A model generated the notes under the pieces. That model was not told where the DNA came from and made no database searches. It was given only the letters and a program-made list of their open reading frames with translations. Shown one piece after another: positions 6,236 through 38,162 of a stretch of 64,000 nt of DNA (positions within the stretch are counted from its first letter, which is position 1; each line of letters begins with the position of its first letter). The position numbers and the translations under genes are program-made. Source of the DNA: Thermoplasmatota archaeon (GTDB lineage Archaea > Thermoplasmatota > E2 > DHVEG-1); the NCBI GenBank assembly GCA_029939595.1, contig JAOZSQ010000001.1, positions 347,669 to 411,668 of the forward strand, given 5' to 3'.

Positions 6236-6258
6236 TAGATAAAAAAAATGATAAATAA

Positions 6259-6266
6259 TATAAATA
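6259..6266 (+). promoter_or_regulatory. T4-type late promoter motif TATAAATA
   Basis: Exact TATAAATA in the AT-rich intergenic spacer upstream of the 6390 gene. Confidence 0.35.
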
Positions 6267-6389
6267 AAAGAAAGCATTATTACATTGCAAAATCTATTAT
6301 ACCAGAAGTTTGAAAACTATCCGACTAAAGGTAAATAATTAAGGAAATAAGTCAATTAATTTATATAACATTTTATTAAGGTAAAAGGT

Positions 6390-6905: not shown

Positions 6906-6916
6906 GAGAGGTTATA

Positions 6917-16520: not shown

Positions 16521-16527
16521 AGGTGTT

Positions 16528-22256: not shown

Positions 22257-22266
22257 ATTACCTTGA

Positions 22267-22482
22267 TTATAACAATGTAGATGGGTTTATTTCCCAACCA
22301 TAGAATGGTGATGATGGAATTGTTTCTTTTAATGTTTTGAGACTGAAGATTGCCTCGTAACTTGTATTCATTGTTTTGCTGTTTATAAGAACAACTATTT
22401 CTTCGTTATCTTGTGAAACAACGTCTACCCATTTTGTTTTACCGTGCAATAAAGATCCATATCCCTTTAATTGTACTTTCAT
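22267..22482 (-). CDS. Hypothetical small protein
   Basis: 71 aa. Confidence 0.25.
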   Translation of the reverse strand: MKVQLKGYGSLLHGKTKWVDVVSQDNEEIVVLINSKTMNTSYEAIFSLKTLKETIPSSPFYGWEINPSTLL

Positions 22483-22528
22483 TGTTATTTATCATTATTA
22501 AGATTTATAATTGGTCATGTTTAATTTT

Positions 22529-22536
22529 TATTTATA
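22529..22536 (-). promoter_or_regulatory. T4-type late promoter motif TATAAATA on the minus strand
   Basis: The plus strand reads tatttata; on the minus strand this lies about 45 nt upstream of the 22482 start codon. Confidence 0.25.
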
Positions 22537-23701
22537 ACATTCCGATTAAATTTCTAATAATGAAAAAATGATCCTCAAATATTTGACGTGGTTCAAGTTC
22601 GCCTAACGGCATCCAAAACGCCCGTTTAGCGTCATCAGATCCTCTGACTTTTGGGAGAGATTCTTCGTCTTTTAGTTGTATTAAATATGCTTTTGTGATT
22701 GTTCTTCCTCTTACTGATCTATATGGATAATCATATGTCCTTTCTTCTTTTATACTGCCTTTTAACACAGGTATAGGTATTTTTAATCTGGTTTCTTCTC
22801 TGAGTTCCCGAATCATTGCATCTATAAGTTTTTCTTCTGGATTGAGAAATCCCCCAGGAAGTGCATATAAACTCTTTCCAGGATGTGATTTTCTTTCAAC
22901 CATCAATACATGACCCGATTGGATAACAACGGCATCTACTGTTTGAAAAATGGGTTTGAATTTATCTTTGAATTCGCCCTTGTAGTGTTGTACAAAATTG
23001 TATTCTTCTTTTATATTTCTATATTCATCGGTTTTTCTGAATTCCATCAAAAAATTGATTGACGAATTTGGAACCAACGAAGATACAAAATTTTTAAATG
23101 GTTCCGGTTCAGTATAAAAGTAAGGTCCTCTAATTGATGATCCGTTAATATTTTTGTGGCTGTTTAAAAGAATTAGTTCCCATTGTGGAAACGATTTGAG
23201 ATAAAATGAAGTTGGATCTTTATCATGCCCTATTATACCAATTTTAGCCATGTTGTACATTGTTTTGCCATGTTCTTTAATAATGTACTTAATCTTTTTT
23301 TGTACTTTCAGTATCCAAAGTACATTATTATAAATGTAATCATCTAAAGGGTTTATGATAATTGGTTTTCCATCAAATTCTTCAAATAACATTTGATGAA
23401 CTTCTTCGTATATGAAAGGGTTTCGTAGGAAGCTTCTAGCTAGATTGGATGATCCTATTAGAATAATTACTTGATTAGCCAATTTAAGGGCTTCTTTGAT
23501 GATATGAGCGTGTCCATTATGTAAAGGTTGGAAACGACCAATAAAAATTAAATAATCAAATTTTTTTTTCTTTTTTGGAAAGGTTTTTGATATAGATTCT
23601 ACATATGTTTTTGCGTCTTCATCTGTTAATGGCGCATCTGTTGGTGGTTCCATAAAAGCTATATCTTCATTTTGTGGTTGTTTTAATAATGCTGTTATCA
23701 T
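22532..23701 (-). CDS. nadM: Bifunctional NMN/NaMN adenylyltransferase (archaeal NadM type) fused to a Nudix hydrolase (NatV-like)
   Basis: HxGH motif in FIGRFQPLHNGHAHII. C-terminal Nudix box GGFLNPEEKLIDAMIRELREETRL. The ORF track begins at a TTG (23713); the ATG at 23701 is the likelier start. Confidence 0.75.
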   Translation of the reverse strand: MITALLKQPQNEDIAFMEPPTDAPLTDEDAKTYVESISKTFPKKKKKFDYLIFIGRFQPLHNGHAHIIKEALKLANQVIILIGSSNLARSFLRNPFIYEEVHQMLFEEFDGKPIIINPLDDYIYNNVLWILKVQKKIKYIIKEHGKTMYNMAKIGIIGHDKDPTSFYLKSFPQWELILLNSHKNINGSSIRGPYFYTEPEPFKNFVSSLVPNSSINFLMEFRKTDEYRNIKEEYNFVQHYKGEFKDKFKPIFQTVDAVVIQSGHVLMVERKSHPGKSLYALPGGFLNPEEKLIDAMIRELREETRLKIPIPVLKGSIKEERTYDYPYRSVRGRTITKAYLIQLKDEESLPKVRGSDDAKRAFWMPLGELEPRQIFEDHFFIIRNLIGML

Positions 23702-23719
23702 ATCTTCCTCCAAGATAAT

Positions 23720-23941
23720 TCAAGATAGGTCTTTTCCCTCTTTGAATTGTTGTTTGTATGATATACGAGCTTTTTCTTCAGCTTGTTCGTATATGTTCAT
23801 ATAATCGTTTTTAATATCATTATTGAAATTAGCTGTTTGTAATGCCTCTTTAAGAAATTCCTGGTAAGGTTTTGGCTGGATAAATTTTTTTAGTTGGGTG
23901 ATCATTTTAATCTCCATTAGTTGTTTTCCCATTATACACAT
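23720..23941 (-). CDS. Hypothetical small protein
   Basis: 73 aa. Confidence 0.25.
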   Translation of the reverse strand: MCIMGKQLMEIKMITQLKKFIQPKPYQEFLKEALQTANFNNDIKNDYMNIYEQAEEKARISYKQQFKEGKDLS

Positions 23942-23962
23942 AATTTAATGGGAAAGTCAACC

Positions 23963-24310
23963 TTAGACAAATTCCAACCCATTTATATTTTGAGCATATT
24001 CTTCAAAGGTTTCCCAAAAGTCATTAATAATATTTTCTCTGCTATTCATCCATGATATACCTTTTTTGAGGTAAAGAGTTAGTAATTGTGCGTTGCGTGA
24101 TGCACATTTGATATTATCAAATGGAATTATTACTCTTTCATCTTCAAAATAAAGTTTTTTAATACAAGGCAAAGAATTGACTATTAGTGATGGAATATCT
24201 TTAAAATCAACTTGGTGTTTGCCCTTTACAGGTACATTTTTTGTGATCAATATTATTTCATTATATGGAAATATATGATTGTCACTTATATGGTAAGTTG
24301 GATTTATCAT
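23963..24310 (-). CDS. Hypothetical protein
   Basis: 115 aa; overlaps the nadE stop. Confidence 0.3.
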   Translation of the reverse strand: MINPTYHISDNHIFPYNEIILITKNVPVKGKHQVDFKDIPSLIVNSLPCIKKLYFEDERVIIPFDNIKCASRNAQLLTLYLKKGISWMNSRENIINDFWETFEEYAQNINGLEFV

Positions 24311-25122
24311 AATTCTATAAATTTTTTGAAATGTTTAGGAATATTGCAGACCGGTATTGGTTGCATTTTGTGTTGATTGGCTTTTTGAAATTTTTCATAA
24401 ATTTTCAAAACTTCTACTTGTCTATTATCCATGTTCAAAAGATTGGGTTTGTTGACAGCCCAATTTATTGCCCATTCCAATTCTTTGTATGTGGCACCGA
24501 TTTGATTTTCATCGGACCGGTTATCTTCCCATAAACCATCAGTAGGAGTGGCTTCTATAATATCTCTGGCTATTCCCAAATACCGACCCAAACCCCACAC
24601 TTCTGATTTCATCAAATCCCCAATTGGGGATATATCAACTCCACCATCTCCATATTTGGTATAAAAACCAATTCCAAAGTCTTCTACTTTATTACCGGTT
24701 CCTACTACCAAGTTATTGTTAGAACCAGCTAATGCATATAGAGTCATCATTCTTAACCTGGATTGAGTATTTGCTAACGTCAAATTGTCCAATAAAGGCA
24801 TTTCATTTTTGAATGCTTGGAATGGTTCGGTTAGATTAATTTCAATGAATGTAACATGAGGATAATTATTTTGGAGCCATTTGATATGGTTTATGGCAGA
24901 GTTACGGGCTTGTTTTTGAGGTAGTTGCATATAATATTGTGTTGGCATCACAGCAAGGGTTGTTTCATAATCTGTTTTGGCGCATAATGTGGAAACAACA
25001 GCCGAGTCAATTCCACCGGATACACCAACTACAAATCCATTCATTTTGGAATTGTCACAATATGTTTTTAGCCAATCTACTATATGTTTGGTTATCAATT
25101 TATATTTCATTTTTCCTTTCAA
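24307..25122 (-). CDS. nadE: NH3-dependent NAD+ synthetase
   Basis: PP-loop GVSGGIDSAV; 271 aa, size typical of NadE. Confidence 0.8.
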   Translation of the reverse strand: MKGKMKYKLITKHIVDWLKTYCDNSKMNGFVVGVSGGIDSAVVSTLCAKTDYETTLAVMPTQYYMQLPQKQARNSAINHIKWLQNNYPHVTFIEINLTEPFQAFKNEMPLLDNLTLANTQSRLRMMTLYALAGSNNNLVVGTGNKVEDFGIGFYTKYGDGGVDISPIGDLMKSEVWGLGRYLGIARDIIEATPTDGLWEDNRSDENQIGATYKELEWAINWAVNKPNLLNMDNRQVEVLKIYEKFQKANQHKMQPIPVCNIPKHFKKFIEL

Positions 25123-25294
25123 AAAAATTGCATTTGTAATTTTTAGTGGAAAGAATTTGCATTAAAAATCCCTCATCTGAATGTCCACTAAAAAAAAGTC
25201 GTTTTTTACAGAGTCCTAATTTGATATATTCAACATCAACCGGTTTAATTTTTTTACAATGCCAATGTTTACAATTTTTACATGCTTTTTTCAT
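25100..25294 (-). CDS. Small Cys-rich (zinc-ribbon-like) protein
   Basis: CKNCKHWHC...C in 64 aa. Confidence 0.3.
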   Translation of the reverse strand: MKKACKNCKHWHCKKIKPVDVEYIKLGLCKKRLFFSGHSDEGFLMQILSTKNYKCNFFERKNEI

Positions 25295-25296
25295 GA

Positions 25297-26445
25297 TTAT
25301 TTTATATTGAAGGTTTCTTTTAGATAATTCAAAAAAGTCTCACTTTTGCACATTCCTTTTCCTGGAGAATCACTTACTTTGGCAACTGGATGATCATTAC
25401 ATTTTATCATTTTCATGACAATTTGTATGGGTTCCAATCCCACATCATTGGTAAGATTGGTTCCGATTCCAAAAGCAGTATTGGTGTATGCTTTGAAATC
25501 ATAGTACGTTTTAATGGCTGTTGGAATAGTTAAACCGTCACTGAATATCAGTGTTTTGGTTTTGGGATCAATGCCCATTTTTTCATAATGTAGCAATGCT
25601 TTGTTACCCCATTCCAAAGGATCACCAGAATCGTGTCGCATACCATCAAACAGTTTGGAAAAGTATAAATCAAAGTCTTTTAAAAATGCGTCAAACCCAA
25701 CTGTATCAGTTAATGCAATTCCAAGTCTACCTCTATATTCTTTTGCCCAAACATCTAATGCAGCTTTTTGGAAAACGTGTAATGGTACTAGTTGTTGGAA
25801 TGCTTGTAAATATTCATGAGCCATTGTACCGATAGGTGTTATCCCAAATCTCATAGCCAGATCAACATTACTGGTTCCGATTATGTTTTGTTTGTTTTCT
25901 TTTAGGAGATATTCTAAAACAGCTATTTGCCATTTTTTAGAATATCTCCTTCTGGTTCCAAATTCGGCTATTTTAATATCTTTGCCATGTTTTCTAAGAT
26001 ATTCGGACTTTTCTGCTAGATGGATGGCTCCACCGGTCAAGTTTTTGTTGTCAGAAAAATACACTTCATTGACAGTAGCCAGGATTGGGATTTCAAAAAG
26101 TGTGGTTTGGAGCCACGGACCTTTGACATTGATACAGAGATCGTTTTTATCACACCGAATATCAACATATTGTTCGGGTACAAAGCAAAAACCTCTTAAA
26201 AAGTCTACGTAGTCTTCGCTTAGAAATCCTAATTTCAAAAGGTAGTTGGCTTCCTCATAGGTTAAATTGAGGTTTTTGAGTTTATAAATTTCTTCGCTAA
26301 TCTTCTCCAAATATGGATTGAAGTCTATGTTGGGAGTTCGGCATTTGAATTCATATTCAACCTCTACACCAGCAAAATGATGAAGTACCACTTGTTGCAT
26401 GGTGAGTTTATAAAGGTCTGTATCAAGAAGACTTGTAATTATCAT
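25297..26445 (-). CDS. pncB: Nicotinate phosphoribosyltransferase
   Basis: N-terminus SLLDTDLYKLTMQQVVLHHF...EVEYEFKCR aligns with E. coli PncB [20 protein letters not shown]...AAEFRCR. 382 aa (PncB is about 400 aa; NadV is about 490 aa). Confidence 0.75.
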   Translation of the reverse strand: MIITSLLDTDLYKLTMQQVVLHHFAGVEVEYEFKCRTPNIDFNPYLEKISEEIYKLKNLNLTYEEANYLLKLGFLSEDYVDFLRGFCFVPEQYVDIRCDKNDLCINVKGPWLQTTLFEIPILATVNEVYFSDNKNLTGGAIHLAEKSEYLRKHGKDIKIAEFGTRRRYSKKWQIAVLEYLLKENKQNIIGTSNVDLAMRFGITPIGTMAHEYLQAFQQLVPLHVFQKAALDVWAKEYRGRLGIALTDTVGFDAFLKDFDLYFSKLFDGMRHDSGDPLEWGNKALLHYEKMGIDPKTKTLIFSDGLTIPTAIKTYYDFKAYTNTAFGIGTNLTNDVGLEPIQIVMKMIKCNDHPVAKVSDSPGKGMCKSETFLNYLKETFNIK

Positions 26446-26499
26446 AATTTAACCTTTGAGTTTGTCCCGACATTTATCCCGACAAAATGGCGGGAGATT

Positions 26500-27234
26500 T
26501 TAAAAATTGAACTGAGAAGGATCAATTTGTGTACTCGGTCCGCCACTTCCTAAACTGGAACTTTGACTAGAAATGCTCTTACTTACGAACCTCCCAAGTT
26601 TTGCCAGTTTCTCCGGTGTGGCATCTCCAATATCAACAAATTCATCAAATTGGACAGTGTTCTGGTAATCGTCCAAATCCTGTTTGTATTGGCCAGTATT
26701 GACACCAATCAGAATGTTGAGGATAGATTCCATGTTCTTGTCTTTTTTGGTAGACGTAATCGCTTGTTTCACATCATCCGGTTGCATGTCCCATACAGTT
26801 TCCCAACCATCTGTTATCACGAAGTTGATGGCATTAACATCAAAATCTTGATCCCGAAGGTCTTTGGCATAGGCGGCAACGGTTTTAACAGCGTCACAAG
26901 TTGCTCCAAACAGGTTGGTATACCCACCCGCTTTCATTCCATCATAATCGGTTAATTCAATATCACCAACCGGCATGAAACCATGTACTTCATTCAGTTC
27001 TTGGTTGAAATATCCAACCCTCAAAATGATATTTTCAGAGCGATCATCTTTTCTACAAGCAAGTACCACATTCTTAACTGCTTGGATCAATTGATCTTGA
27101 AAAGAACTTACACTGGAAGATTTATCGCACCAGAGATTCACAAGAGTTTGTTCGGCAGCACCCAAATCTTCGGGGCGCACGGCACTAAATGCGAAGTTAG
27201 AGCCTTTTACCATTTGTTTACTAAGTACAGGCAT
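26500..27234 (-). CDS. von Willebrand factor A (vWA) domain protein with intact MIDAS (TerY-like)
   Basis: DxSxS in LWCDKSSSV; GGYTNLFGA; FVITDGWET. Confidence 0.55.
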   Translation of the reverse strand: MPVLSKQMVKGSNFAFSAVRPEDLGAAEQTLVNLWCDKSSSVSSFQDQLIQAVKNVVLACRKDDRSENIILRVGYFNQELNEVHGFMPVGDIELTDYDGMKAGGYTNLFGATCDAVKTVAAYAKDLRDQDFDVNAINFVITDGWETVWDMQPDDVKQAITSTKKDKNMESILNILIGVNTGQYKQDLDDYQNTVQFDEFVDIGDATPEKLAKLGRFVSKSISSQSSSLGSGGPSTQIDPSQFNF

Positions 27235-27255
27235 AGTAGCCTCCTTTATATAAGT

Positions 27256-27702
27256 TTAAAAAAGTAGTTTTGGATGTAAACTGATGTAAATCATTGCCGG
27301 ACCGCTGGCTATGAATTCATCAGCATATCCAAATTCACTGATGGAACCGATTCGGTTATTGATAGCCATGATGGTATCCCATTCAAGAGTGAATGTTGAA
27401 TTTATTGTGAATACCATTACAACTTTTTTATAGTTGTTTAGAAAAACTCTCAGAGGGCGCAATTTCAAACCTTTGAGAATTTTTCTTATTTTTTTCTTCC
27501 GTCTATCAGATATATCCTTTTCACCAGCAGTAATGAATGATGCCATATATGATGAATATTCATCTTCCATTCCTGTTTGAACAGAAATCATTTGTTTTCT
27601 GAATTCTTTGGCGAATGTATTGCTATTATCCATCATTTTTTTAAGCATCTCTACAAGTTGCTTTTGTGGGAGATACGGAATTTCAAATTTGCGCTTTGAC
27701 AT
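27256..27702 (-). CDS. Hypothetical protein
   Basis: 148 aa; its stop lies in an AAGGAGG RBS for the downstream gene. Confidence 0.3.
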   Translation of the reverse strand: MSKRKFEIPYLPQKQLVEMLKKMMDNSNTFAKEFRKQMISVQTGMEDEYSSYMASFITAGEKDISDRRKKKIRKILKGLKLRPLRVFLNNYKKVVMVFTINSTFTLEWDTIMAINNRIGSISEFGYADEFIASGPAMIYISLHPKLLF

Positions 27703-27765
27703 TGTTACTCCATGTAAAGTCTACTGACTTTGGGTTTTTCTTATAAAGAAGTCAGTAGACTTGGG

Positions 27766-28611
27766 TTAAAATAAATAATCGGTTGTTCTGGCTACTTGCA
27801 TTCCACGATCCTTCATTTGCATTATAAAATCCGCTGCCATCGTTTCAAATCCAGGAACAGGAGAAGTTGCATCTTCCAATAACACAATTTTTTTCAATAC
27901 TTCATCACCAAATGCATCTACAATCTGTTCCAGAGTAGCCTTTAAACAATGACTGGAAGCCCAACCAGCCAATGGAACTAGATCGGCTTCTTCAATAGTT
28001 TCAATGGCTTCTTTGTTCATACCAGTTCCAGGGTCACTCGGAACAACAACTTCGGCTTGTAATCCACCATAATGTTCAGAAAGAAAGTTGCTTCCTTTTG
28101 TTAGGATATTCGTGACACCAAATCGGGTTGTTTCCCATTCGTCCAAAGCCTCCGCAATTGGAGTATATATACTAAATCCTGGTTGAGCGATTAAACAATG
28201 CTCCGGCCAGATGCAAAGCACATACTTGCTTTTTTGTTCAAGTTGCTCAGTATAGTAAAGTACCCATTCCAATAAAGATTTTGTTGATCCATCTGGCATT
28301 AATACAGGTACATTCGGATTGGTTGGCAACCATTCTTTTTTTCTTATGTCTTCATTGTATATCAGAGTGGGTTTGCCACCTTCAAATGGTATAGGATGTT
28401 TGCCACGTTTGTTCTTCCAAAAATGTGGATGGGCAATATGAATTCTATGGTGAGAATCCAATGTAACGTGAATATCATCTAACCGTTTGATATTATTTTT
28501 TATGTATTTTGCAAGGCGATTACCGTCTTCTTTTGCTCCTGCCACTGGCAGGTTTCCGTTTTCCAAAACAAAATCGTTTTGGGGGTCAATGATAACGAGT
28601 TGCATGTTCAT
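27766..28611 (-). CDS. pncA: Nicotinamidase (isochorismatase family, PncA-like)
   Basis: LVIIDPQNDF against E. coli PncA LLLVDLQNDF. IWPEHC against FWPDHC. Catalytic Cys context LAGWASSHCLKAT against GLATDYCVKFT. Confidence 0.75.
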   Translation of the reverse strand: MNMQLVIIDPQNDFVLENGNLPVAGAKEDGNRLAKYIKNNIKRLDDIHVTLDSHHRIHIAHPHFWKNKRGKHPIPFEGGKPTLIYNEDIRKKEWLPTNPNVPVLMPDGSTKSLLEWVLYYTEQLEQKSKYVLCIWPEHCLIAQPGFSIYTPIAEALDEWETTRFGVTNILTKGSNFLSEHYGGLQAEVVVPSDPGTGMNKEAIETIEEADLVPLAGWASSHCLKATLEQIVDAFGDEVLKKIVLLEDATSPVPGFETMAADFIMQMKDRGMQVARTTDYLF

Positions 28612-29447
28612 GTTGTCTCCTGGTCTAAATTAAGAAATGAAGCTCCAACAACTGTTAGATCGTCTAAATTGAGGATTCTCTCTTCAGCACAATCATTAAC
28701 AAATCGTTTGAATCTTCTTTGAATAAATTCTCCTTTGAAATTTTTAAAATTTAACATTTGTTTGAAAAATTCTGAATCATTCTTTTTATGATGATTCCCG
28801 CCCATTTGATGAAATGAATTAATTCCGTCACTTGCGAGAAGTAAAAATTCCAATTTATCTTCATCAAATTCTTGGGCAAAGGGTTCTTCTTTTGAAACAT
28901 TGTAAGTTATAGTATTAAGTTTAGGACCCAATGTTTGTATATGAACCTCTTTTGATAACCCATTTACTGCTCCCCATTTTTTTCTTTTTCCCTCATCTAC
29001 ATAGTATAAAGGATAGTATGGGTATTCACCACCAACCATTTTGATTGTAATTATACAAATTGTTGAACTTTCTTTCAATTTGAAAATAATGGAACCATCT
29101 CCAAAAATTATAATGTTTACTTTACCTTCATCGCTGTATGCTAGTAATAACGTGGCAAATAACGATTCGGAAGGAAGATCCATTAGTTTAGTAACTTCCA
29201 TTGATTTGTTCATTAATTCATCAATATATGTTTCATATCCTTCGTTTTTTATTAGATATGTTGAATATAAGCTGAAATGGGATAATATTCTTGCTCCCAT
29301 ATCGGAGTTTTTGGCACTGGAACAGCCATCACATAACGACATATAGAATTCTTCATAGTTATCTCCACCATAACAAAAATAGTCTTCGTTGTGTAGGTGT
29401 TGTTTGCCTTTATGAGTAAACCCATCAATGTGTATTTCTGGTTTCAT
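28608..29447 (-). CDS. PP2C-family Ser/Thr protein phosphatase
   Basis: LCDGCSSAKNSDMGARILSHFS and LLASDGINSF resemble PP2C metal-binding motifs. Confidence 0.5.
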   Translation of the reverse strand: MKPEIHIDGFTHKGKQHLHNEDYFCYGGDNYEEFYMSLCDGCSSAKNSDMGARILSHFSLYSTYLIKNEGYETYIDELMNKSMEVTKLMDLPSESLFATLLLAYSDEGKVNIIIFGDGSIIFKLKESSTICIITIKMVGGEYPYYPLYYVDEGKRKKWGAVNGLSKEVHIQTLGPKLNTITYNVSKEEPFAQEFDEDKLEFLLLASDGINSFHQMGGNHHKKNDSEFFKQMLNFKNFKGEFIQRRFKRFVNDCAEERILNLDDLTVVGASFLNLDQETT

Positions 29448-29607
29448 TTTGCCTGATAAGTTATTTGTTTTGGTTCAATAATTCTGGATTCTTTTGTTAT
29501 GTCTTTTGCTTCTTTGAGTCTTAATGACCAAAGAGGTTGTCTTAAATTATTAAGTACCCTTTTTTCTATTTTAGCTATTATTTTTATTTTGCGTTCTGGT
29601 TCAATTT

Positions 29608-29793
29608 TCATGTGGTCTCCTTATAACGATAATAAGCAAATGGAGTTCTTACTTGCCATTCTCCTGGATATTCTTTCATAACTTCAATGGCTAATTCAAC
29701 CGATTTATAATTACCATCTAAGCCACGTTTCAGTTCGGCTTCGGTTATTTGTTCTATCTCTTTTTCTCCAACAAATTGTCTTTCGTACATCAT
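29608..29793 (-). CDS. Hypothetical small protein
   Basis: 61 aa. Confidence 0.25.
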   Translation of the reverse strand: MMYERQFVGEKEIEQITEAELKRGLDGNYKSVELAIEVMKEYPGEWQVRTPFAYYRYKETT

Positions 29794-30002
29794 TTGCTCC
29801 AGAGTGGGAAGATTGAAAATATTAAACAGGATATTATAAATGTAATAATTACAATTTTTATTAGATAATTTTTAAAAGGTTTGTGAAATTTTTTATCAGG
29901 AAATATTTTGAAATTAAAGTTATATTCACTCACTGATAAAAAAATTGTAAAACCAGTAACTATTGTTATCATGATTATACTCATTATAATATAAAGAATC
30001 AT
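29790..30002 (-). CDS. Small membrane protein (2 predicted TM helices)
   Basis: Hydrophobic IIMSIIMITIVTGFTIFL and IVIITFIISCLIFSIF segments. Confidence 0.3.
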   Translation of the reverse strand: MILYIIMSIIMITIVTGFTIFLSVSEYNFNFKIFPDKKFHKPFKNYLIKIVIITFIISCLIFSIFPLWSK

Positions 30003-30004
30003 GA

Positions 30005-31726
30005 TTACCTCGTGGAAAATTGATATAAGATATTATCTTTGAAAACTAAAGCTTTTTCCTCATTACATGATAATGTTAAATCTCCATCTAATGTGTTATC
30101 AGTTACAACCCGTACTTTTTGATTTTCAGGTTGATTGGAAAACATTTCAACTTCATTGTTTTCATTGATTAATAAACCAATTCCTTGTCTAAGCACAGTG
30201 AAATTAATATCCATGAATCCAGGTATGGTTTTGTTTTGAATAGTGTAGCTTTCCATTCCTTTTGCGAACCGGATTATAAATCTTATATATTTTCTTCCTC
30301 TGTTGCCGATTAAAATGGCTACTTGATTCATATATTTTCCATAAAGAATTTTATAACCTTGTAATTCTTTTATTTGGAGGAACTGCCCTGCTAACCGTTT
30401 GCCAGTATTTTGAGGTATCAAAATATATGGTTTACCCAATATGTTTTGGTAAACCATTCCGTTCATTATTTGAGTCGCATAGGGCAGCACACCCCAACTT
30501 GTTCCATATGTTAAAATGGGTTTTCTTAACATTTTAATGTTGATTTCAACGATTCGGTCCTGCACTTTACCAATCAATGCGTTATCCGCAACATTTATTT
30601 GTTCAAATTTAGTAGTATAATCCACCTTTTCACCAGAACTTAATATTTTTGCAAAATTAGTATCAGCTTCTACTGGTTCAAGGGTTTTTGGGAGTATGAT
30701 TGTTTCCATTTGCCGATCAAATGCACTGAATGTACAATCGTCAATATAGATTACATAACCAGCTTTTACTACGTTTTTTCCCTGATGGGAAAAATGCCAT
30801 TTGATTGGATCTCGGTATTCTTTTATTTTTTCTAATTTAAAGAAGTTACTGGAAACCACTTTTTTGAAAATGGGAGCAACCACCTTTACAATACCAGCCA
30901 TATCGGGTGGTAATGTGCGTTTACCATGTTTAAAAATATCTTCTAACCATCCACGCATATTGGTGGGTATGTGATCCATCGTTCTCACACATGGAGGCAT
31001 TTTGACCCCTTTATCAAAGATAGATGCATTTTCCTTCATCCGTTTCAGATAAAGTTCTTGTTTGTCGTTATATTGTTTTGGATTATATTTGGGATGGGTT
31101 CCTTTAAATGGATGTTCTCCCAAGTACACTTTAGTTGCCAAGATTCCAAAAGAAAACCAATCACTTAGTTCGGTAAATTTTTTAGTTTGCATTACTTGTG
31201 GATCGGTCATCAATGGAGAATAGGCATCCGCAGGAAAATCTTTGGTTTGCCAAGAATCCACATCTAAAAAGTGAGGCAATGCCATATCAGCTAAACTAAT
31301 AAGGAAATTAACCTCATTCCAATCCACAATCAAACATTTTTTACTGTGGATGAATTCAAGAGTTATTGCGATTTCATCAACCAGTTTATTTGCTTGATCA
31401 ATTGTGAAATTATTGATTTTGCGAAAGGATTTGGTAAAGGTTTTACACAATGCTTCCATGTTGTCGGCATAGTGCATTGTGATACCTAATGGCGTTCCAC
31501 GTTTGTTAGTGAAAATATCAGTTGGGCGAGATATATTATCCCGTTTCAATTCCATTAATTGGTTGATTTTACCAATCGGAATCATTTTAGAAGGGTCAAT
31601 ATATATTTTGAAAACGGTTTTGTTTTTAACGCAGATATGGCCTTGACCGCCTGTGGTCTTGTAGTTAGCGTCATTCAGCTTGATGGGCTGTTTGTCAAGA
31701 TATACTGTGGTGGGTTTGAAATTCAT
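30005..31726 (-). CDS. Eukaryotic-like Ser/Thr protein kinase
   Basis: Gly-rich loop TTGGQGHICV. Catalytic-loop-like IHSKKCLIVDWNEVNF. Subdomain IX-like DWFSFGILATKVYLGEHPF. Confidence 0.5.
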   Translation of the reverse strand: MNFKPTTVYLDKQPIKLNDANYKTTGGQGHICVKNKTVFKIYIDPSKMIPIGKINQLMELKRDNISRPTDIFTNKRGTPLGITMHYADNMEALCKTFTKSFRKINNFTIDQANKLVDEIAITLEFIHSKKCLIVDWNEVNFLISLADMALPHFLDVDSWQTKDFPADAYSPLMTDPQVMQTKKFTELSDWFSFGILATKVYLGEHPFKGTHPKYNPKQYNDKQELYLKRMKENASIFDKGVKMPPCVRTMDHIPTNMRGWLEDIFKHGKRTLPPDMAGIVKVVAPIFKKVVSSNFFKLEKIKEYRDPIKWHFSHQGKNVVKAGYVIYIDDCTFSAFDRQMETIILPKTLEPVEADTNFAKILSSGEKVDYTTKFEQINVADNALIGKVQDRIVEINIKMLRKPILTYGTSWGVLPYATQIMNGMVYQNILGKPYILIPQNTGKRLAGQFLQIKELQGYKILYGKYMNQVAILIGNRGRKYIRFIIRFAKGMESYTIQNKTIPGFMDINFTVLRQGIGLLINENNEVEMFSNQPENQKVRVVTDNTLDGDLTLSCNEEKALVFKDNILYQFSTR

Positions 31727-31834
31727 ATCCGATATGCTCCATATCGTAATTTTGTTTTGGGTCTTTCCCCAAAAATTTTGTTGTCTCTTTTATTTATATT
31801 ATAATTTTCTAAAAAGGTTTCTGTCAAGAAAAAA

Positions 31835-32149
31835 TTATAAAACATAATTATGAATCAACCAACCAAGTCCTAATGATATAGCGGGAACCAAACCCCCATA
31901 TACAATTAATTTTAGAATAGTTACAGTTTTATCATCATCTTTTGGTTCTGAAATATGAGGGGCAAGTAATCCCATAATAATTACCATTCCTAATGCCGAA
32001 CCCATTGTGATTTGAGCAAAATTTAAAGGTGCCAGTGTTAAAAACCAACCCCAATGTTTTGTAATCACAAAGGCTTTCCAACACATTATAGTAATTCCTG
32101 CTACAATTAAAAAGCCGACCCATAATATTCCGCCTAAAAATTTATCCAT
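31835..32149 (-). CDS. Small integral membrane protein (3 TM helices)
   Basis: 104 aa, highly hydrophobic. Confidence 0.35.
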   Translation of the reverse strand: MDKFLGGILWVGFLIVAGITIMCWKAFVITKHWGWFLTLAPLNFAQITMGSALGMVIIMGLLAPHISEPKDDDKTVTILKLIVYGGLVPAISLGLGWLIHNYVL

Positions 32150-32272
32150 CTTTACTCCAAAACCAATTAAATAAGGTTAGACTATCTTTTTGTGGTGGGA
32201 AACTTTCTCTTTCTTTTGTTTTATATGAAACAACCCATTTTCCATCGCAATTTTCATTGGGTTCACAATTTG

Positions 32273-33718
32273 TTACCCAACATTCTGTTCCATTTTCTCG
32301 TGTATATTTTTCTCCTTTTCGGGGTAAGTTTTGCATTGTTCAATTTCCAGTGATTTGTTATATAATTTTGTTGCGTATTCGTTTAACAATTCTAATTTAA
32401 TTAATTTTGATGTCCATCGTTCAGGAATATTATCAATCCCATAATAAGCTCCGGCTAACATGCCATAAATAGCACCAACTGTATCAGCGTCATCACCCAA
32501 GTTTACAGCCAGAATACAACCTTCTTCAAAGGAATTGGAATTGTAAAATGCCCATAAAGCAGCTTCCATACTACTTGAAACTCTTCCCCAAGCACAAATA
32601 TCAGGAGGTCTTTTTTCTTTAAAAGATCCGTTGGCTATTTCCAATATTTTTGAATGGAGATTGGTATATCCTGTTTTCCAGTAATTATAGGGACCATATA
32701 ATGGAGAAAGAAGTTCTTCTTTTGGTATTTCATCAACGGCTCCCCATATTAAACCACCATAATATTCACATGCGCCAATACATTCGTGGGCTTGATGGGT
32801 GGTTTTTGAACTTAATCCTGAATTATGTATTGCTTTTTTGTGGTCAGTCCAATAGAAGAGCGGAACGGGTGCCAAACGCATTAAAGAACCATTACCTGCT
32901 TTTTCAGGATCGGCAGATCCACAATAAGCTTTTTTTTCTTTTTGAAATTTGAATTCATAGATAGCATCTCTTGTGGTCATGCCAACATCAAAACATTTTC
33001 CTATGCTACTTAGGAAGCCTTCAAAATGCTATCTGGAATAGTTTCTTATTTGGTCAAGAGGATCAAACTCGCCTTTATTTATAAGGCTTTCTGTGAGGCA
33101 TAACGCAAGCGAGGTATCGTCTGTCCATTGTCCAGGTGAAACATTGAATTCGCCTCCACTGGTCATATCAGAGATAAAAGGAAAGGTTCCTGGGCTTCTG
33201 AACTCAACAGGTGCGCCGAGTGCATCACCACATGCCAATCCGATTATACTGCCTTTGAATCTATCAATTGTTTTCATATTTTTAATATCATTTGTATTCC
33301 GGCTGCTATTAGTTTCATATATTTCCTTTAGTATTTGGGTTCTTTTAGAGGGAAGACCTTTTGTTTTTTGCATACATTGTCTTTTTCCTTTGGAATAGTC
33401 AATATTTTCATAGTCATCAAATTGTTCTGCGGTTAGGTCAACAATTTCATCATCTGGCCATTTTGCAAACCAATGGTTTGCATCATAACCAGGAATTTTC
33501 AAACAAAAAGGTTTTGAACCGGCTGGTGCAATGTGTTCAATTAGAAATTCAGTAACCACATAACAATAATTTTTAGTTGGATTTTTATCGGACCAATCTT
33601 TTCTTAATTTGGGTTTTAAATTTCTTCTGCCCAATCTTCTGAGAGCATGATATAACACATCTTTTTTGATACCCGCTTTTTCAAACATTTTGTTTGATTC
33701 TTCAGGAGATATTTTCAT
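32273..33718 (-). pseudogene. ADP-ribosylglycohydrolase (ARH/DraG family) interrupted by an in-frame TAG at 33029-33031
   Basis: N-terminal half carries [20 protein letters not shown]...[18 protein letters not shown]-terminal half carries GNGSLMR and GDDADTVGAIYGMLAGAYYG. Both halves are in the same frame with 16 sense codons between the TAG and the next Met. The TAG sits where ARH proteins have a Trp (RYxxW). Confidence 0.65.
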
Positions 33719-36357
33719 GCCGGTTCATATTGTTTGATATCATCTTGGAATTGCTTTAGTAAATCTTCGGCTTCTTCTTTATTTTTTAAAGATTTAATAA
33801 ATTCCGATTTTTTACCTCCATCAACCAGAGATTTTTCAAATATTGCAGATGCGAATATACAGTACACCATTTCTGAACCGTTTCCTGTTCCATAAGTTTC
33901 ATCATCATCCATTTCTAGTTTAGTGGGATTTCTTGAATCCGCATTAATTGCAAAACAACCATCGCTTTGAACAAGATTGGTGGAGAGTTTTACATCTTTG
34001 ACTATTCTTCCTAATGCACTATTTGCTTTTTCGTTATCTCTTTCAAAATTATCGTGCATTATCTTTTGGACTCCATGATGGGCACTGTTATATATTTGAA
34101 CAGGTCCTCTCATTTCACAAATGGATAACTTACGCAAATCGGGACGATCAGTATACAATCCCAATTTAGGATGCACTTTTTCAAAAGTTATTTCTTCTTC
34201 TGGTTTATATTTTATTTTTGTTTTTGGTGCAAATTCTATATTTAAACGTGGGAGTCGTATTCTTTTTTTGGTTCCTTTTACGTTTATATATAAAAAAGTA
34301 TCGGGTATTCTGTGAGCAGCCTTCAGTAATCTCCATTTATTCAAATTGACAGGATTGAAAATGGGTTTGGCACCGTGTTGTGTATCTTTTGGATTGATTA
34401 ATTCCTGTGGAGGATTAATTATCATTTTCCAAATATCAACATTTTTATATTTTGGAATATCTTCTTTTATATCCAGTGTTGTAGAGTCACCCTTTTCAAT
34501 AATCAAGGATTGTTCACGTTTAACTGCTGCCATTCCTTTGATGCTGTTGGTGTCGGTTACTTCTGGAATTAGATATTCTTCGGTGTTGCGTTTTCTTAGA
34601 ATAAAATATATAACCTTTTTCATGTCGGTTGAATATTTGGTGTCGGAGTATGTGATCTTACCATCTTTAATTTCTATACCTTCATTTATAATTTCATTTC
34701 CATTTTCATCTTTAAATGTTAAGGTATCACATTTATCGGTAAGTAATGATTCAATCCAACCCTTTTTGGTTCGTATAAAAGCTATAATATCTGCTTTCAT
34801 AGTGTTGTCTGTTTCTACGTTGAATTCTTTTCCTTTGAATTTGCTTTTCCTTGTTACCATTACATTTTTTGCATATTCATATAATTTAGATTTATCAGAT
34901 TTGTTCAACGCAGCAAAACAGCGGGTTATAAAAGCATTTGCTGTGAGTCTATGTTCATTTTTTAAACTGAACATAGAATTGGTATCCAAGAATGGGGGAT
35001 GAGCGTCATTTTTTTCGTTTTTATATTTAACATCAATGATTGTTAATTTAAGAAAAAATTTTGCTCGTCTGTGGTCAATTTCAAGGTCATCACCGATTTC
35101 TTTTTCCAAACCATATAACAGAGTTGAAAATTCTGATAGGTTTTCTGCAAAGGTGTTAATTGGCTCTTTTTCATATCGGTATGCACCTTTGCTGATGGTT
35201 TTAGCCAAATATGGAGAATATATTGCTCCTCCTTGATAATTTTTGACATAGTAATCAGTATCTTCTTTGTCATCATCTTTTTTTACTCTATCTGACTTAT
35301 AAACTTTTACCCCCCTATCATTTTCTGTTTTGGATAATTTTCCTTTTTTTTCAAGATATGAATACATATTTTCATAGTTTTTATGTTTTTCTAATATCTT
35401 TTTTAGAAGTTCGTGGGTTTTGGCAGCTTCTATCTCTTTTTGATATGAAGCAAATTCGGTATAGCTTGGATCAATCATATAACCACCAATCAATGTTTTG
35501 ACCACGAATTCATCTTTTGTTTTTTCGTTAGTCATATCTATGTCTGCTAGTACATCAAATACTTGAATAGTTCTTTGACTCATAGTTTTGTAGTTTTCAT
35601 TTTCATCTAATTTCCCTATATTATGCTTCCGGCGCAATCCGCAATTTATTTCCATAATTTCTTTGATTACATCATGGCATTGAATTATGTCAATTCCAAG
35701 TAATTGCCTGTTTGTGGGTTCTGAATGACCGCATATTGAAAAGTAATGGGATGCGGGATTGTAGAAACAATCTTGTGTCATAAGATATTCCATATATTCG
35801 TTAATTATTCTTATTTCATTGGCATAATAGTTTGTTTCTTCCAATGTTTTTGTTTTTAGTTCCTCTTGTAATGAAGCTATTATTTTACGCATTTCTTCGG
35901 GTGTTGGGGCTTTGAATTTATCGGGTCGTTCACTTCCATTAAAGGGAGGAAAAAAGTCACAAATTTCTTGATATATTCCACTGTTGGATTGAGATAACGC
36001 ATAACCGGCATCTTTTGCTCCTTGACCAAAACAAGATATTTTTCCAAACGAACTTTTATATGGTTTCAACATGGAAATTGCTTCAAGTGTGTTGGGTTTG
36101 CCGCCAGTGTGATATATTCCGAGCCAGTATGAATTGTCTCGTAAGTGGTATAATGAAATTTGTATTTTGAGTTTTGAGTTTTTGTTTTTGTAATCTACAT
36201 TATTGTGATAAATTTCACGAATGTACGTTCTGATTGCTCTTTCTTGAACTTCTCCAGTTTTTTCAGTAATAGGTGAACTGTGTTGTTCTGAAGTCAATTC
36301 CCTTAATGAATTATGATCTTCTTCGGGAAAATGAGTTAATGTAATTTCTTCAATCAT
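33715..36357 (-). CDS. Large hypothetical protein with an N-terminal GHKL-type ATPase-like region
   Basis: 880 aa. N-box-like [10 protein letters not shown]1-like [11 protein letters not shown]2-like [16 protein letters not shown]. The rest is unrecognised. Confidence 0.3.
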
Positions 36358-36405
36358 TTTTATTTTTTAGTTAGTTTGTTTGCTTCATTTTGGAGTTAAA
36401 ATTTA

Positions 36406-36435
36406 ATAGTAAATCATTTTTGAGAATTCTGTCAA
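36406..36435 (-). promoter_or_regulatory. Near-consensus sigma70-type promoter for the leftward accessory operon
   Basis: The minus strand reads TTGACA-N18-TACTAT, about 50 nt upstream of the 36357 start. A GC-rich inverted repeat gtacgc..gcgtac (36444-36467) lies just upstream, after the pspA stop. Confidence 0.4.
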
Positions 36436-36474
36436 GTTTTATTTTCAAGTACGCCGGAGTACGCCAGCGTACAT

Positions 36475-37206
36475 TTATGCTGCTTCTTCAACAGTTTCAG
36501 TATCCATGCCGATCTGTTTCTTCAACTTCTCCAGTTCGGATTCTACTTCGCTATCACCAATTTGAAGAACATTATCAATTTCATCTTCCAGAGTCTTGGC
36601 TTGTGTTTGTTGACCCATTTCTTCATACGCCAAAGCAAGCACTTCTTCACTTTCCACACGCCGTTTCATTTCTTCCATCATTGATATCGTATCATTGAAA
36701 TCAATTTGTGCGATTTGTTTATTAACTTCTTTTGATACTGCTGCTGCTTTTTGACGAGCGGTTAATTCAGCTAATTCCCTTTCGTATTTCTTGATTTCTT
36801 CTTTTAATGTTGCAATGGTTTGTTCAACCTTTTTAACACTATCTATCCGGCTCCCAACGAGGGTTTCAGATAATTGAAGGTTCTTTTTGTAATCATTTTG
36901 TTTTTGGAGGGCTGCTGTTGCTAACCGAGTGGCTTCTTTTTCATCAATTTTGCCATCTTTTGCCGATTGAAGTAACCCAATCGCCTTGTTGCCCCAAACA
37001 CCAACTAATTCTTTATTAGCCTTTACATCTCTGTTAGCCTTTATTTGGAGGGCTTTGGTTTCTGCATAGGCGTTTAAAGCCAGTTCAAGTTTCTTTTTTA
37101 GTTCACGAATTCCCTCGGCTATCAATTTGATAGGATCTTCAATTTTGCTTATGAGTTCGTGGCTTTGCGATTTAAAAATGCGCCCGATAGATTTAAAAAA
37201 TCCCAT
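36475..37206 (-). CDS. pspA: PspA/IM30/Vipp1-family membrane-stress protein
   Basis: MGFFKSIGRIFKSQSHELISKIEDPIKLIAEGIRELKKKL aligns with E. coli PspA [40 protein letters not shown]. Coiled-coil throughout. Confidence 0.8.
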   Translation of the reverse strand: MGFFKSIGRIFKSQSHELISKIEDPIKLIAEGIRELKKKLELALNAYAETKALQIKANRDVKANKELVGVWGNKAIGLLQSAKDGKIDEKEATRLATAALQKQNDYKKNLQLSETLVGSRIDSVKKVEQTIATLKEEIKKYERELAELTARQKAAAVSKEVNKQIAQIDFNDTISMMEEMKRRVESEEVLALAYEEMGQQTQAKTLEDEIDNVLQIGDSEVESELEKLKKQIGMDTETVEEAA

Positions 37207-37310
37207 TTTATTCTCCTATTTAAAGATGTCAGCCAAATTAGTAGTCGGTTTTTCCAGGGTGATCTTGTTGATTATGAAATCTTTCCATATTTCATTTTGT
37301 TCTTCGTTTG

Positions 37311-37766
37311 TCATAATGAATCCAATATCGCTTTTTTTATTCGGTCACGAGACCAATCGTTTTTCCAATCAGCTAATCTTCCTAATCTATCAGCACTTTT
37401 TAGCTTTGTCAAATCTTTTTTTAAACTTTCTTTTGCTTCTGGAATTTCCTTGTCCATGTGATGTTTAATCAACCAAAATGTTTCATCTGATATAATATAA
37501 GAGAAAGGTAATAATAATTTAACTGATGCATCAGAATGGCCTTTGGTTTGAATTGTTTTACCTAAGTCATGTAAGAGGGTAGCTAAAATTAGATCGCAAT
37601 TCTGAGGCCATTTTGATACTGCTATGGCAAATGATTGAATAGAATGTGAATAGGCGCATATTTCTGGATGAAGATTGGGGTCCTGTTTTACCCATTTCAA
37701 TTCCTCAATCATATTTAAAAATATGTCCAGATAAGGTTCCACTATTTTGGGGTCTTTAATTTTCAT
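37311..37766 (-). CDS. HD-domain phosphohydrolase
   Basis: H...HD motif: HSIQSFAIAV ... LLHDLGK. Confidence 0.55.
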   Translation of the reverse strand: MKIKDPKIVEPYLDIFLNMIEELKWVKQDPNLHPEICAYSHSIQSFAIAVSKWPQNCDLILATLLHDLGKTIQTKGHSDASVKLLLPFSYIISDETFWLIKHHMDKEIPEAKESLKKDLTKLKSADRLGRLADWKNDWSRDRIKKAILDSL

Positions 37767-37820
37767 GTTGCCACTAAATACTAAGAAAGACTTAATTTTT
37801 CGTTTTAAAAAGGCAAAATT

Positions 37821-38162
37821 ATGGATGATGAAACTTTTTTGATACGTCTTCGTGATAATATTAAAAAGAAATACCCAAATGCTTGTAAATTTTTTGAATT
37901 AAGGGAAAAAGATCCTGTCGTGGAGAAATATTTAAAAGCATGGGAAGATAATCAGTTAAAATCTTTGCAAGATAATACACAGGCTAAACTCACTTTTGAA
38001 ATTGTACTTATTGAATGTTCTGTTATTTTGTCCAGACGAGTGCAATGTATTCTTGAACAACAAAAAAAGATAAAACAACAAAAGGCAGCACAAGAACAAA
38101 CAAAAAAATCAAATCCAACACCCAAATCAAATCCGTTTGGTGCGGAAGTTCTTAGGAGATAG
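37821..38162 (+). CDS. Hypothetical protein
   Basis: 113 aa; lone plus-strand gene. Confidence 0.3.
   Translation: MDDETFLIRLRDNIKKKYPNACKFFELREKDPVVEKYLKAWEDNQLKSLQDNTQAKLTFEIVLIECSVILSRRVQCILEQQKKIKQQKAAQEQTKKSNPTPKSNPFGAEVLRR

Follow-up and report, generated by a model that had tools for sequence, protein, structure and literature searches.

What does a vWA/PP2C/Ser-Thr kinase triad do among the NAD-salvage genes of a huge phage? The locus that raises this question lies in a window of 64,000 nucleotides, part of a 426,929-bp contig, that is phage DNA and encodes a portal protein (positions 4490-6235) and a major head protein (8532-10151). The original prediction saw here a TerY-P-like triad that would form one functional island with NAD salvage and an ADP-ribosylglycohydrolase (ARH), and that may counter ADP-ribosylation and NAD-based immunity of the host. 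The vWA, PP2C and kinase calls were all confirmed at their coordinates on the minus strand, where the three genes are confined to 5.2 kb (Table 1). Across related loci, the coupling of this TerY-P-type triad to a PncA-like nicotinamidase is well supported; no description of a nicotinamidase-triad association was found in the searchable literature.

Table 1 Features of the triad locus and its surroundings (window coordinates).
Feature	Positions	Strand	Basis or remark
NadM-type nucleotidyltransferase-Nudix fusion (NMN/NaMN adenylyltransferase)	22532..23713	-	Pfam CTP_transf_like and NUDIX
NAD synthetase NadE	24307..25122	-	Pfam NAD_synthase, E=3.2e-48
Nicotinate phosphoribosyltransferase PncB	25297..26445	-	Pfam NAPRTase, E=8.7e-76
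TerY/YegL-type vWA protein, 244 aa	26500..27234	-	MIDAS D37, S39, S41, T106, D142; Ser-rich C-terminal helix
148-aa ORF, function unknown	27256..27702	-	Between PncA-like and vWA genes
PncA-like nicotinamidase (isochorismatase fold), ~70-aa insertion	27766..28611	-	Catalytic triad and metal ligands present
PP2C-type phosphatase, 279 aa	28608..29447	-	Pfam PP2C_2, E=3.9e-10, above gathering cut-off
Three small ORFs, 70 aa (hydrophobic), 61 aa and 55 aa	29444..30002	-	Between kinase and PP2C genes, 4-nt overlaps
YegI-type Ser/Thr kinase with all-beta C-terminal domain, 573 aa	30005..31726	-	Pfam Pkinase, E=4.9e-11
Sigma-70-type promoter candidate	31798..31827	-	TTGACA-18 nt-TATAAT, 12/12 matches, ~70 nt upstream of kinase start codon
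Putative membrane protein, 104 aa	31835..32149	-	phrog_2169 'membrane protein', E=2.9e-4, weak; upstream of promoter
YunG-domain/ADP-ribosylglycohydrolase fusion, Tri1/DraG type	32273..33718	-	Pfam and NCBIfam; in-frame TAG

The vWA protein has no match of its own in Pfam. It belongs to a family of ~245-aa proteins, some members of which match PF00092 or carry the JGI name 'YegL'. Family alignment, predicted structure and Foldseek agree on a vWA protein with an intact MIDAS, as had been predicted: D37, S41, T106 and D142 of the DxSxS...T...D motif are invariant in the alignment, and the PDB matches of the AlphaFold2 model (pLDDT 89.5) are, with few exceptions, vWA or integrin I domains. The family matches the E. 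coli YegL profile weakly (16%), so that the vWA fold and the MIDAS are firm and the specific TerY subtype is less firm. The C-terminal helix (FVSKSISSQS) is Ser-rich and highly conserved in the family, and the C-terminus of E. coli YegL is similarly Ser-rich. A small number of loci are without kinase and PP2C, and the tail is conserved there too; its conservation is thus no proof of a phospho-acceptor role.

The phosphatase call is backed both by the Pfam profile and by the invariant residues of the family (D22, D40-G41, D117, D207-G208 and D262-D263), among which all metal-binding Asp are present. The third protein comprises a kinase domain (residues 1-275) and an all-beta C-terminal domain (about 296-572). 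A check of the catalytic Lys and Asp on the family alignment indicates a kinase of the active type: D135 and D155 are invariant, together with G26, G27, N140, D189-W190 and R270, and K40 is nearly so. In the AlphaFold2 model (pLDDT 92.3), the C-terminal ~280 residues are predicted to fold into 28 beta-strands, arranged as seven sets of four. Foldseek with this model returned kinases, the only non-kinase among the top matches being the Nup133 beta-propeller, and the modelled C-terminal domain is consistent with a seven-bladed beta-propeller. E. coli YegI aligns with the kinase family over 255 columns (hhalign 98.5%, E=1.9e-15), and the two have the atypical motifs GGEGxIY, KIYHxP and IDxDSxQ in common; E. 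coli PphC matches the PP2C family with an hhalign probability of 94%. These two matches bear out the TerY-P-type domain combination.

The nicotinamidase gene had been described as interleaved with the triad. It is instead a core member of the unit and the tightest partner of the vWA gene, directly upstream of it and on the same strand in 160/160 related loci; the gap between the two genes has a median of 38 nt. Judged by sequence, the PncA-like protein is best read as a distinct long nicotinamidase subfamily; 509 representative clusters score E<=1e-30. Across 37 family members, neither the D9-K172-C222 triad nor the metal ligands (D52, H54 and H138 of the WPxHC motif) vary, positions that were matched by eye to M. 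tuberculosis PncA and yeast Pnc1. The best PDB matches of the family profile are nearly all nicotinamidases, headed by yeast Pnc1 (2h0r, E=6.5e-15) and followed by 29iv, 3pl1, 1ilw and 2wt9.

The order PncA-like, vWA, PP2C, kinase is kept in 126/132 loci. Gene content was counted in the loci with full 10-kb flanks (n=96; 58 viral and 38 from bacterial genomes): the PncA-like gene is present in 96/96, and all four genes are present in 55/58 viral and 33/38 bacterial-genome loci. Huge phages carry the unit, and so do ordinary chromosomes of bacteria. Cultured carriers include Bradyrhizobium strains, which have all four genes, and Variovorax sp. WDL1, which has the PncA-like/vWA pair.

The surroundings of the unit point to NAD salvage. 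Of the 96 full-flank loci, 58 (31/58 viral, 27/38 genome) have a gene for NrtR, PncB, NadE or NMNAT no more than 10 kb away, and ~40% have no NAD gene inside that distance. The predicted functional island with NAD salvage is upheld by this conserved synteny, in which the recurrent neighbours are the PncA-like gene itself, NrtR, PncB, NadE and NMNAT. NrtR is present in 23 of the 38 full-flank genome loci; in a Desulfosudis MAG, for example, nrtR is divergent from a run of PncA-like, vWA, PP2C, kinase and PncB genes amid ordinary chromosomal genes. The idea of a phage-specific conflict module does not survive such loci, which place this operon beside nrtR on ordinary chromosomes of bacteria. Just upstream of the PncA-like gene, ~20 bacterial loci carry a 21-bp palindrome (TTARTTGCA-N3-TGCAAYTAA), the size and symmetry of which fit NrtR operators as described in PMC2330246. 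The window has no NrtR gene (its Nudix domain is that of the NadM fusion) and no match to the palindrome. The phage PncA-like, PncB, NadM-type and NadE proteins are best read, from their sequences, as a complete nicotinamide -> nicotinate -> NaMN -> NaAD -> NAD+ (Preiss-Handler) route.

This arrangement resembles the NrtR-regulated pncA-pncB salvage I operons (Rodionov et al. 2008, PMC2330246), where nrtR is likewise divergent from a nicotinamidase-first operon; common to those operons and the bacterial unit are also the frequent presence of pncB and nadE in the operon and a 21-bp palindrome in the divergent region. It differs in that the nicotinamidase here is of a distinct long subfamily, whose gene always has a vWA gene after it and, in most cases, genes for PP2C and kinase too. 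The triad genes are not among the NrtR regulon members in that paper, unless they correspond to its unexplained 'nrtX-nrtY'.

The PncA-like protein could act on something other than nicotinamide, as an effector hydrolase that serves in conflict or stress under the control of the triad, with another amide as its substrate, for example a nucleotide-derived signal. On Pfam Isochorismatase, the window's protein by itself reaches 16.6 bits, below the cut-off of 27, and this divergence together with the large insertion means that the substrate could differ. The family profile nevertheless matches solved nicotinamidases first, and the family retains the D-K-C triad as well as the WPxHC metal ligand that typifies nicotinamidases. 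Some PncA-like relatives are fused into very large proteins; NADAR, RNA ligase and RtcB genes are recurrent neighbours of the unit in part of the viral loci; and in one Gammaproteobacteria MAG the PncA-like/vWA pair adjoins TerD and HIT genes. The TerD/HIT neighbourhood, however, recurs in no other related locus, whereas PncB, the consumer of the nicotinamidase product, is among the commonest neighbours. We consider an effector hydrolase unlikely.

A second alternative takes the vWA, PP2C and kinase as a stand-alone TerY-P anti-phage defence, carried for superinfection exclusion, with coincidental NAD neighbours. As quoted in PMC11090510, the TerY-P triad (Anantharaman, Iyer and Aravind 2012) comprises a TerY-like vWA protein, a PP2C and a Ser/Thr kinase; the same source summarizes Gao et al. 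(2020) as showing protection from phages by TerY-P-like triads. Homology of the kinase and PP2C to YegI and PphC speaks for this reading, as do the mobile-element-type genes (PDDEXK, radical SAM, HerA) that surround the unit in Bradyrhizobium. The likeness to TerY-P and to E. coli YegL-PphC-YegI extends to the same three domains, to the same vWA-PP2C-kinase order in most relatives, and to the MIDAS of the vWA protein and its C-terminal helix, which is rich in Ser as in YegL. The differences are in what accompanies the triad. Here the triad has an obligate fourth gene, that of a PncA-like nicotinamidase; the kinase ends in a predicted beta-propeller, whereas YegI ends in a membrane anchor and the other described triads in a zinc ribbon or an OB fold; and the context is NAD salvage with NrtR, in contrast to the Ter genes or restriction/DNA-processing systems of the described triads, TerD occurring in one bacterial locus only. 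With the TerY-P defence system of Gao et al. (2020), a kinase-OB fusion, the unit has the three-domain composition in common; it has no OB fold, is phage- as well as bacteria-borne, and is linked to NAD salvage. Among the defence-system models of PADLOC-DB 2.0, neither the vWA protein (no match at E<=0.1) nor the kinase (matches only to other kinases, mad6 and PD-T4-6) is recognized as a TerY-P component, and the PP2C matches weakly (E=3.8e-6) a generic 'PP2C' model. With the PncA-like gene beside the vWA gene in every related locus, and with the unit adjoining nrtR amid ordinary chromosomal genes in several bacterial lineages, a stand-alone defence appears distinctly improbable.

In the window, the gene order is rearranged to kinase, PP2C, PncA-like, extra ORF and vWA, an order not found in any other related locus. 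A gap of 2 nt separates the kinase gene from the first small ORF, and 4-nt overlaps continue from there through PP2C to the PncA-like gene, whose start codon and the PP2C stop likewise share a 4-nt overlap. The three small ORFs, of which the 70-aa one (29790-30002) looks membrane-embedded, have no family match, and their relatives are absent from the locus set except for the window's own duplicate contig. The 148-aa ORF is present in this phage only within the locus set, and its PADLOC matches are weak and not credible. Two small membrane proteins had been predicted beyond the kinase: the 104-aa protein indeed looks membrane-embedded, whereas the 64-aa ORF (32142-32336) is hydrophilic. The 104-aa protein has no relatives in related loci and is a doubtful member of the unit. 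The promoter candidate is the only perfect sigma-70 match within 22000-38000, a region in which the total of promoter-like sites is not above shuffled controls; this host-type element before the kinase gene probably drives transcription. That the kinase and phosphatase mainly target host proteins for takeover, as T7 gp0.7 does, with the vWA and PncA-like proteins as passengers, would suit the phage location, a host-type promoter suggestive of early expression and the other signalling proteins of this phage (two hybrid histidine kinases and a Cache-domain protein), but makes no sense for bacterial chromosomes, where the same four genes stay together, and we give it very little credence.

The link to the ARH proved weak. 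Of the 96 full-flank loci, 5 have an ARH gene, and the window copy carries a premature stop: a single in-frame TAG (33029-33031) splits it into ORFs 33029-33718 and 32273-32980, which match PF03747 positions 1-77 and 96-287, and neither ORF holds a complete domain. The TAG aligns with a conserved Trp of 2cwc and of Tri1 (6dre). The window gives no sign of general TAG recoding and contains no tRNA.

The best reading of the locus is a putative TerY-P-type phospho-switch, coupled to a nicotinamidase that belongs to a complete Preiss-Handler route. On balance, we favour the conserved PncA-like/vWA/PP2C/YegI-type kinase unit as an integral part of NAD-salvage operons that would act as a phospho-switch on nicotinamide recycling. 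The occurrence of the four-gene unit inside bacterial NAD-recycling operons suggests phospho-control of NAD salvage and its capture as a whole by phages. In such a switch, the MIDAS of the vWA protein would serve to bind the nicotinamidase or a different salvage enzyme, and the kinase and PP2C would reversibly phosphorylate the invariant Ser-rich C-terminal helix of the vWA protein. In integrin I domains, movement of helix alpha7 sets MIDAS affinity, and the Ser-rich helix is predicted to sit at the position of that helix. The beta-propeller of the kinase may serve as the input domain, and the outcome would be switchable nicotinamide recycling. The phage would benefit by rebuilding NAD+ from the nicotinamide freed when NAD+ is consumed or destroyed in infection, and a role of the unit against NAD-based immunity is plausible.

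NARP1, NARP2 and NARP3 are also phage-encoded enzyme sets that rebuild NAD+. According to their papers, these pathways use Adps/Namat, Nampt/Nmnat and PnuC/NadR, without mention of PncA or PncB, whereas the route here is deamidated (PncA, PncB, NMNAT, NadE); the NARPs have no vWA/PP2C/kinase module. As a more tentative extension, the triad and the long-form nicotinamidase could constitute a phospho-regulated, MIDAS-mediated control of NrtR-governed NAD salvage that is widespread in bacteria, including many CPR lineages, and huge phages might have captured the whole operon, which would then be a fourth pathway of NAD+ reconstitution, a deamidated one, for use against NAD+-depleting immunity.

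TerY-P triads are listed as anti-phage systems, yet we know of no mechanism for them, nor of a substrate for E. coli YegL-PphC-YegI. A triad clade that is locked to one assayable enzyme offers a concrete way to learn what a vWA/kinase/phosphatase switch does. The control of bacterial NAD salvage is so far known mainly as transcriptional (NrtR, NiaR and NadR), and the restoration of NAD+ by phages through NARP1 to NARP3 is an actively studied topic. If our reading is true, post-translational control would be added to bacterial NAD salvage, and a regulated Preiss-Handler route would join the means by which phages restore NAD+ in infection.

The vWA protein, PP2C phosphatase and Ser/Thr kinase of the window belong to a four-gene unit, the fourth member of which is a PncA-like protein, a predicted nicotinamidase. 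A search with the single kinase sequence found no related loci; 160 (80 each from IMG/VR and GTDB species genomes) were retrieved via an alignment of the vWA family, and all of their ORFs were searched with HMMs built from the window proteins. All 160 loci have a co-oriented PncA-like gene immediately upstream of vWA (median gap 38 nt), and in all 133 cases PP2C comes before the kinase gene. The full order PncA-like, vWA, PP2C, kinase is found in 126 of 132 loci. When the count is restricted to loci whose 10-kb flanks are complete, 55 of 58 viral loci and 33 of 38 genome loci have the whole unit. All four genes occur in Bradyrhizobium. The PncA-like/vWA pair stands alone in a few bacterial loci, with or without NrtR (for example, in Variovorax sp. 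WDL1). Two clusters (c6_428 and one of 277 aa) were discarded as spurious antisense ORFs over PncA-like and vWA genes. The gene order of the window (kinase, PP2C, PncA-like, an extra ORF, vWA) occurs in no other related locus and is a rearrangement. The pncA gene that the original prediction described as interleaved with the triad does lie among the triad genes, as the core partner of the vWA gene.

The unit lies in phage DNA: portal and major head proteins are encoded in the window, which comes from a contig of 426,929 bp. Megablast of positions 26400-33800 against GenBank phages gave zero matches, and tblastn against GenBank matched three uncultured huge phages and no others; the nearest relatives of the window there measure 485 kb and 595 kb and are uncultured huge phages. 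Every gene between 22.5 and 36.4 kb is on the minus strand (see table). The 880-aa gene has no match in Pfam, PHROG or PADLOC, and its stop codon shares a 4-nt overlap with the start codon of the ADP-ribosylglycohydrolase (ARH) gene. Similar 4-nt overlaps chain the small ORFs, PP2C and PncA-like genes, and a 2-nt gap separates the end of the kinase gene from the first small ORF. PADLOC matches of the 148-aa ORF to Cas12e or GajB were short and weak, and were disregarded.

Features of the window around the four-gene unit
Feature	Position	Strand	Remark
T4 RnlA-type RNA ligase	18979-20124	minus	close to the NAD island (a few kb)
NadM-type adenylyltransferase-Nudix fusion	22532-23713	minus	
NadE	24307-25122	minus	
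PncB	25297-26445	minus	
vWA protein	26500-27234	minus	
148-aa ORF	27256-27702	minus	
PncA-like protein	27766-28611	minus	
PP2C phosphatase	28608-29447	minus	
Three small ORFs	29444-30002	minus	
Ser/Thr kinase	30005-31726	minus	
Candidate sigma-70 promoter	31827-31798	minus	directly upstream of the kinase gene
104-aa putative membrane protein	31835-32149	minus	
64-aa ORF		minus	between ARH and 104-aa ORF in transcription order
YunG/ADP-ribosylglycohydrolase gene	32273-33718	minus	stop-broken; in-frame TAG at 33029-33031
880-aa protein	33715-36357	minus	weak NCBIfam 'HPE1 effector' match only
PspA/IM30 homologue	36475-37206		upstream of the NAD island
Hybrid histidine kinase	38152-39636	minus	
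Hybrid histidine kinase	39643-41754	minus	
Endonuclease I-lamin-tail domain fusion	42115-43443	minus	
Cache-domain protein	45842-46546		separate protein

Signalling proteins are unusually numerous for a phage. Both hybrid histidine kinases have HisKA, HATPase_c and receiver domains, one of the two also has a PAS domain, and a Cache domain is encoded separately. An endonuclease I-lamin-tail fusion lies nearby, and the RNA ligase carries the PHROG annotation 'RNA ligase and tail fiber protein attachment catalyst'.

All three members of the triad could be identified, as originally predicted, and the catalytic and MIDAS residues are intact. Pfam Pkinase recognises the kinase (E=4.9e-11). Across 42 aligned full-length relatives there is no variation at G26 and G27 of the glycine loop, D135, N140, D155, D189-W190 or R270, and almost none at K40; neither the catalytic Lys nor the catalytic Asp is therefore missing. 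In the AlphaFold2 model of the kinase (pLDDT 92.3), the kinase fold is succeeded by 28 beta-strands arranged as seven groups of four, and Foldseek matched this model to kinases and to the Nup133 beta-propeller. The phosphatase scores above the gathering threshold of Pfam PP2C_2 and, in the family alignment, retains all of the metal-binding aspartates. The vWA protein itself has no Pfam match; some members of its family (210 proteins found) match PF00092 or are named YegL. The MIDAS residues D37, S41, T106 and D142 are invariant in the family alignment, and PDB structural matches to the model (pLDDT 89.5) are almost only vWA or integrin I domains. Strikingly conserved is a C-terminal helix (LAKLAxFVSKSISSQSQALGTG), in which three serines are invariant.

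On its own, the PncA-like protein of the window (281 aa) falls under the Pfam cut-off. Its family retains the nicotinamidase triad D9, K172 and C222 together with the metal ligands, including the WPxHC motif, and has an insertion of ~70 residues. Close to the C-terminus there is a conserved acidic residue. Nicotinamidases come first when the family profile is compared with solved structures (yeast Pnc1 at 6.5e-15). The subfamily comprises 509 representative clusters at E<=1e-30; four relatives (P0197, P0273, P0303 and P0326) are fused into larger proteins (614 aa with two copies; 1225-1629 aa).

Escherichia coli K-12 encodes a comparable triad in the order yegL (vWA), pphC (PP2C), yegI (kinase), of which PphC and YegI have been characterised biochemically, their substrates being unknown (bioRxiv 10.1101/819920). 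YegI matches the kinase family at 98.5% hhalign probability (E=1.9e-15), with atypical motifs in common, and PphC matches the PP2C family at 94%; the match of YegL to the vWA profile is weak (16%), although its C-terminus is a Ser-rich segment (FSWLSSSLRSVSRS) comparable to the vWA family tail. TerY-P triads, as defined in PMC11090510, associate with Ter or restriction-type systems, and their kinases carry a zinc ribbon as fusion partner, which in the defence systems of Gao et al. is replaced by an OB fold (PMC11090510). By contrast, the kinase of the four-gene unit carries a beta-propeller and the unit is linked to NAD salvage. PADLOC recognised neither the vWA protein nor the kinase as a TerY-P component. 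The unit is therefore best classed as a variant of TerY-P and not as a member of the described defence family: the predicted TerY-P likeness holds for homology to YegI and PphC, but not for kinase fusion, genomic context or PADLOC recognition. A Ter-system reading, raised by TerD/HIT genes beside the PncA-like/vWA pair in one MAG, was dropped, as this neighbourhood did not recur when related loci were clustered. Full-text literature searches for a nicotinamidase/isochorismatase with vWA and PP2C, or for NrtR with those, returned nothing relevant. The four-gene unit is absent from a survey of jumbo phages and from another of viral NAD/ADP-ribose systems, and the phage NAD+ reconstitution pathways NARP1 to NARP3, as described, are without a PncA/PncB route.

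Beyond the four genes, NrtR (Nudix plus NrtR winged helix), PncB, NadE and an NMNAT are the most frequent neighbours; NADAR, RNA ligase (12 loci) and ARH are rarer. One or more NAD genes lie within 10 kb in 31 of the 58 viral loci and in 27 of the 38 genome loci. The single island originally proposed for the phage is supported in part: the triad belongs with the nicotinamidase and NAD-salvage genes, and does so in bacteria too. A typical bacterial map reads PncA-like, vWA, PP2C, kinase, PncB, with nrtR divergent, flanked by ordinary chromosomal genes (molybdate transporter, methyltransferase, carboxylate reductase). The nrtR/PncA-like intergenic regions have in common a 21-bp palindrome, TTARTTGCA-N3-TGCAAYTAA, which adjoins a TATACT-like -10 box and is spread over Beta-, Gamma- and Deltaproteobacteria (for example, L163 9009-9029, L096 8956-8976 and, as two tandem copies, L004 9072-9114). 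A mismatch-tolerant search placed it just upstream of PncA-like in ~20 bacterial loci, some without a close NrtR gene. NrtR operators are 21-bp palindromes that vary by lineage, and ADP-ribose releases NrtR (PMC2330246); the palindrome is a candidate NrtR operator. With nrtR as neighbour and this palindrome upstream of PncA-like, the bacterial unit behaves as part of an NAD-salvage regulon. The NrtR-controlled 'nrtX-nrtY' operons of Streptomyces, Frankia, Kineococcus, Proteus mirabilis and Hahella, whose function was unexplained (PMC2330246, Table 1), match the nrtR/PncA-like/vWA loci in their divergent layout, and might be the PncA-like/vWA pair.

In another huge-phage lineage (loci L007 and L008), PspC and PspA homologues flank the unit (8817-9128 and 16462-17139); the PspA proteins of the window and of these loci are too divergent for clustering to link them. 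At 4873-7138 of the same loci, RtcB is present as two ORFs (148 aa and ~200 aa) around an I-TevI-type zinc finger gene, adjoined by NADAR and RNA ligase genes, which looks like a homing-endonuclease or intron insertion.

The predicted ARH-family hydrolase is present, but its reading frame is interrupted. Its two ORFs are one gene, with a YunG domain fused at the N-terminus, split by an in-frame TAG. Where this stop falls in the alignment, the solved homologues nearest to the protein, Thermus thermophilus 2cwc (E=1.4e-63) and Serratia Tri1 6dre, have a conserved Trp (TGG); apart from this position, conservation of the two halves is good. From this alignment, one TGG-to-TAG change would explain the split. 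The stop may mark a very recent pseudogene, may reflect a polymorphism or assembly error, or may be suppressed. Few related loci have an ARH gene near the unit, and these genes belong to different subfamilies, uninformative on the TAG position. Stop-codon reassignment was rejected: the standard code leaves the portal and capsid genes unbroken, no other convincing window gene has an in-frame TAG, and a tRNA/Rfam search of the window gave zero matches.

With the gene content, intact catalytic sites, obligate linkage and regulatory context of the unit documented, we propose that the nicotinamidase would feed PncB, NadM and NadE, converting nicotinamide to NAD+. The MIDAS of the vWA protein may engage the nicotinamidase or a neighbouring enzyme, and the kinase, receiving its signal through the beta-propeller, and PP2C could switch this contact on and off through modification of the Ser-rich C-terminal helix, whose position would correspond to that of the allosteric alpha7 helix in integrin I domains. 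This switching is the weakest step, because the Ser-rich tail is also kept in loci without a nearby kinase gene.

The palindrome is absent from the window, and the candidate promoter is a perfect TTGACA-18 nt-TATAAT. In the phage unit, NAD-regulon control is probably exchanged for this candidate consensus sigma-70 promoter, the sequence of which suggests transcription by unmodified host RNA polymerase. Since NAD+-depleting defence systems release nicotinamide, a counter-defence role for the phage unit is plausible.
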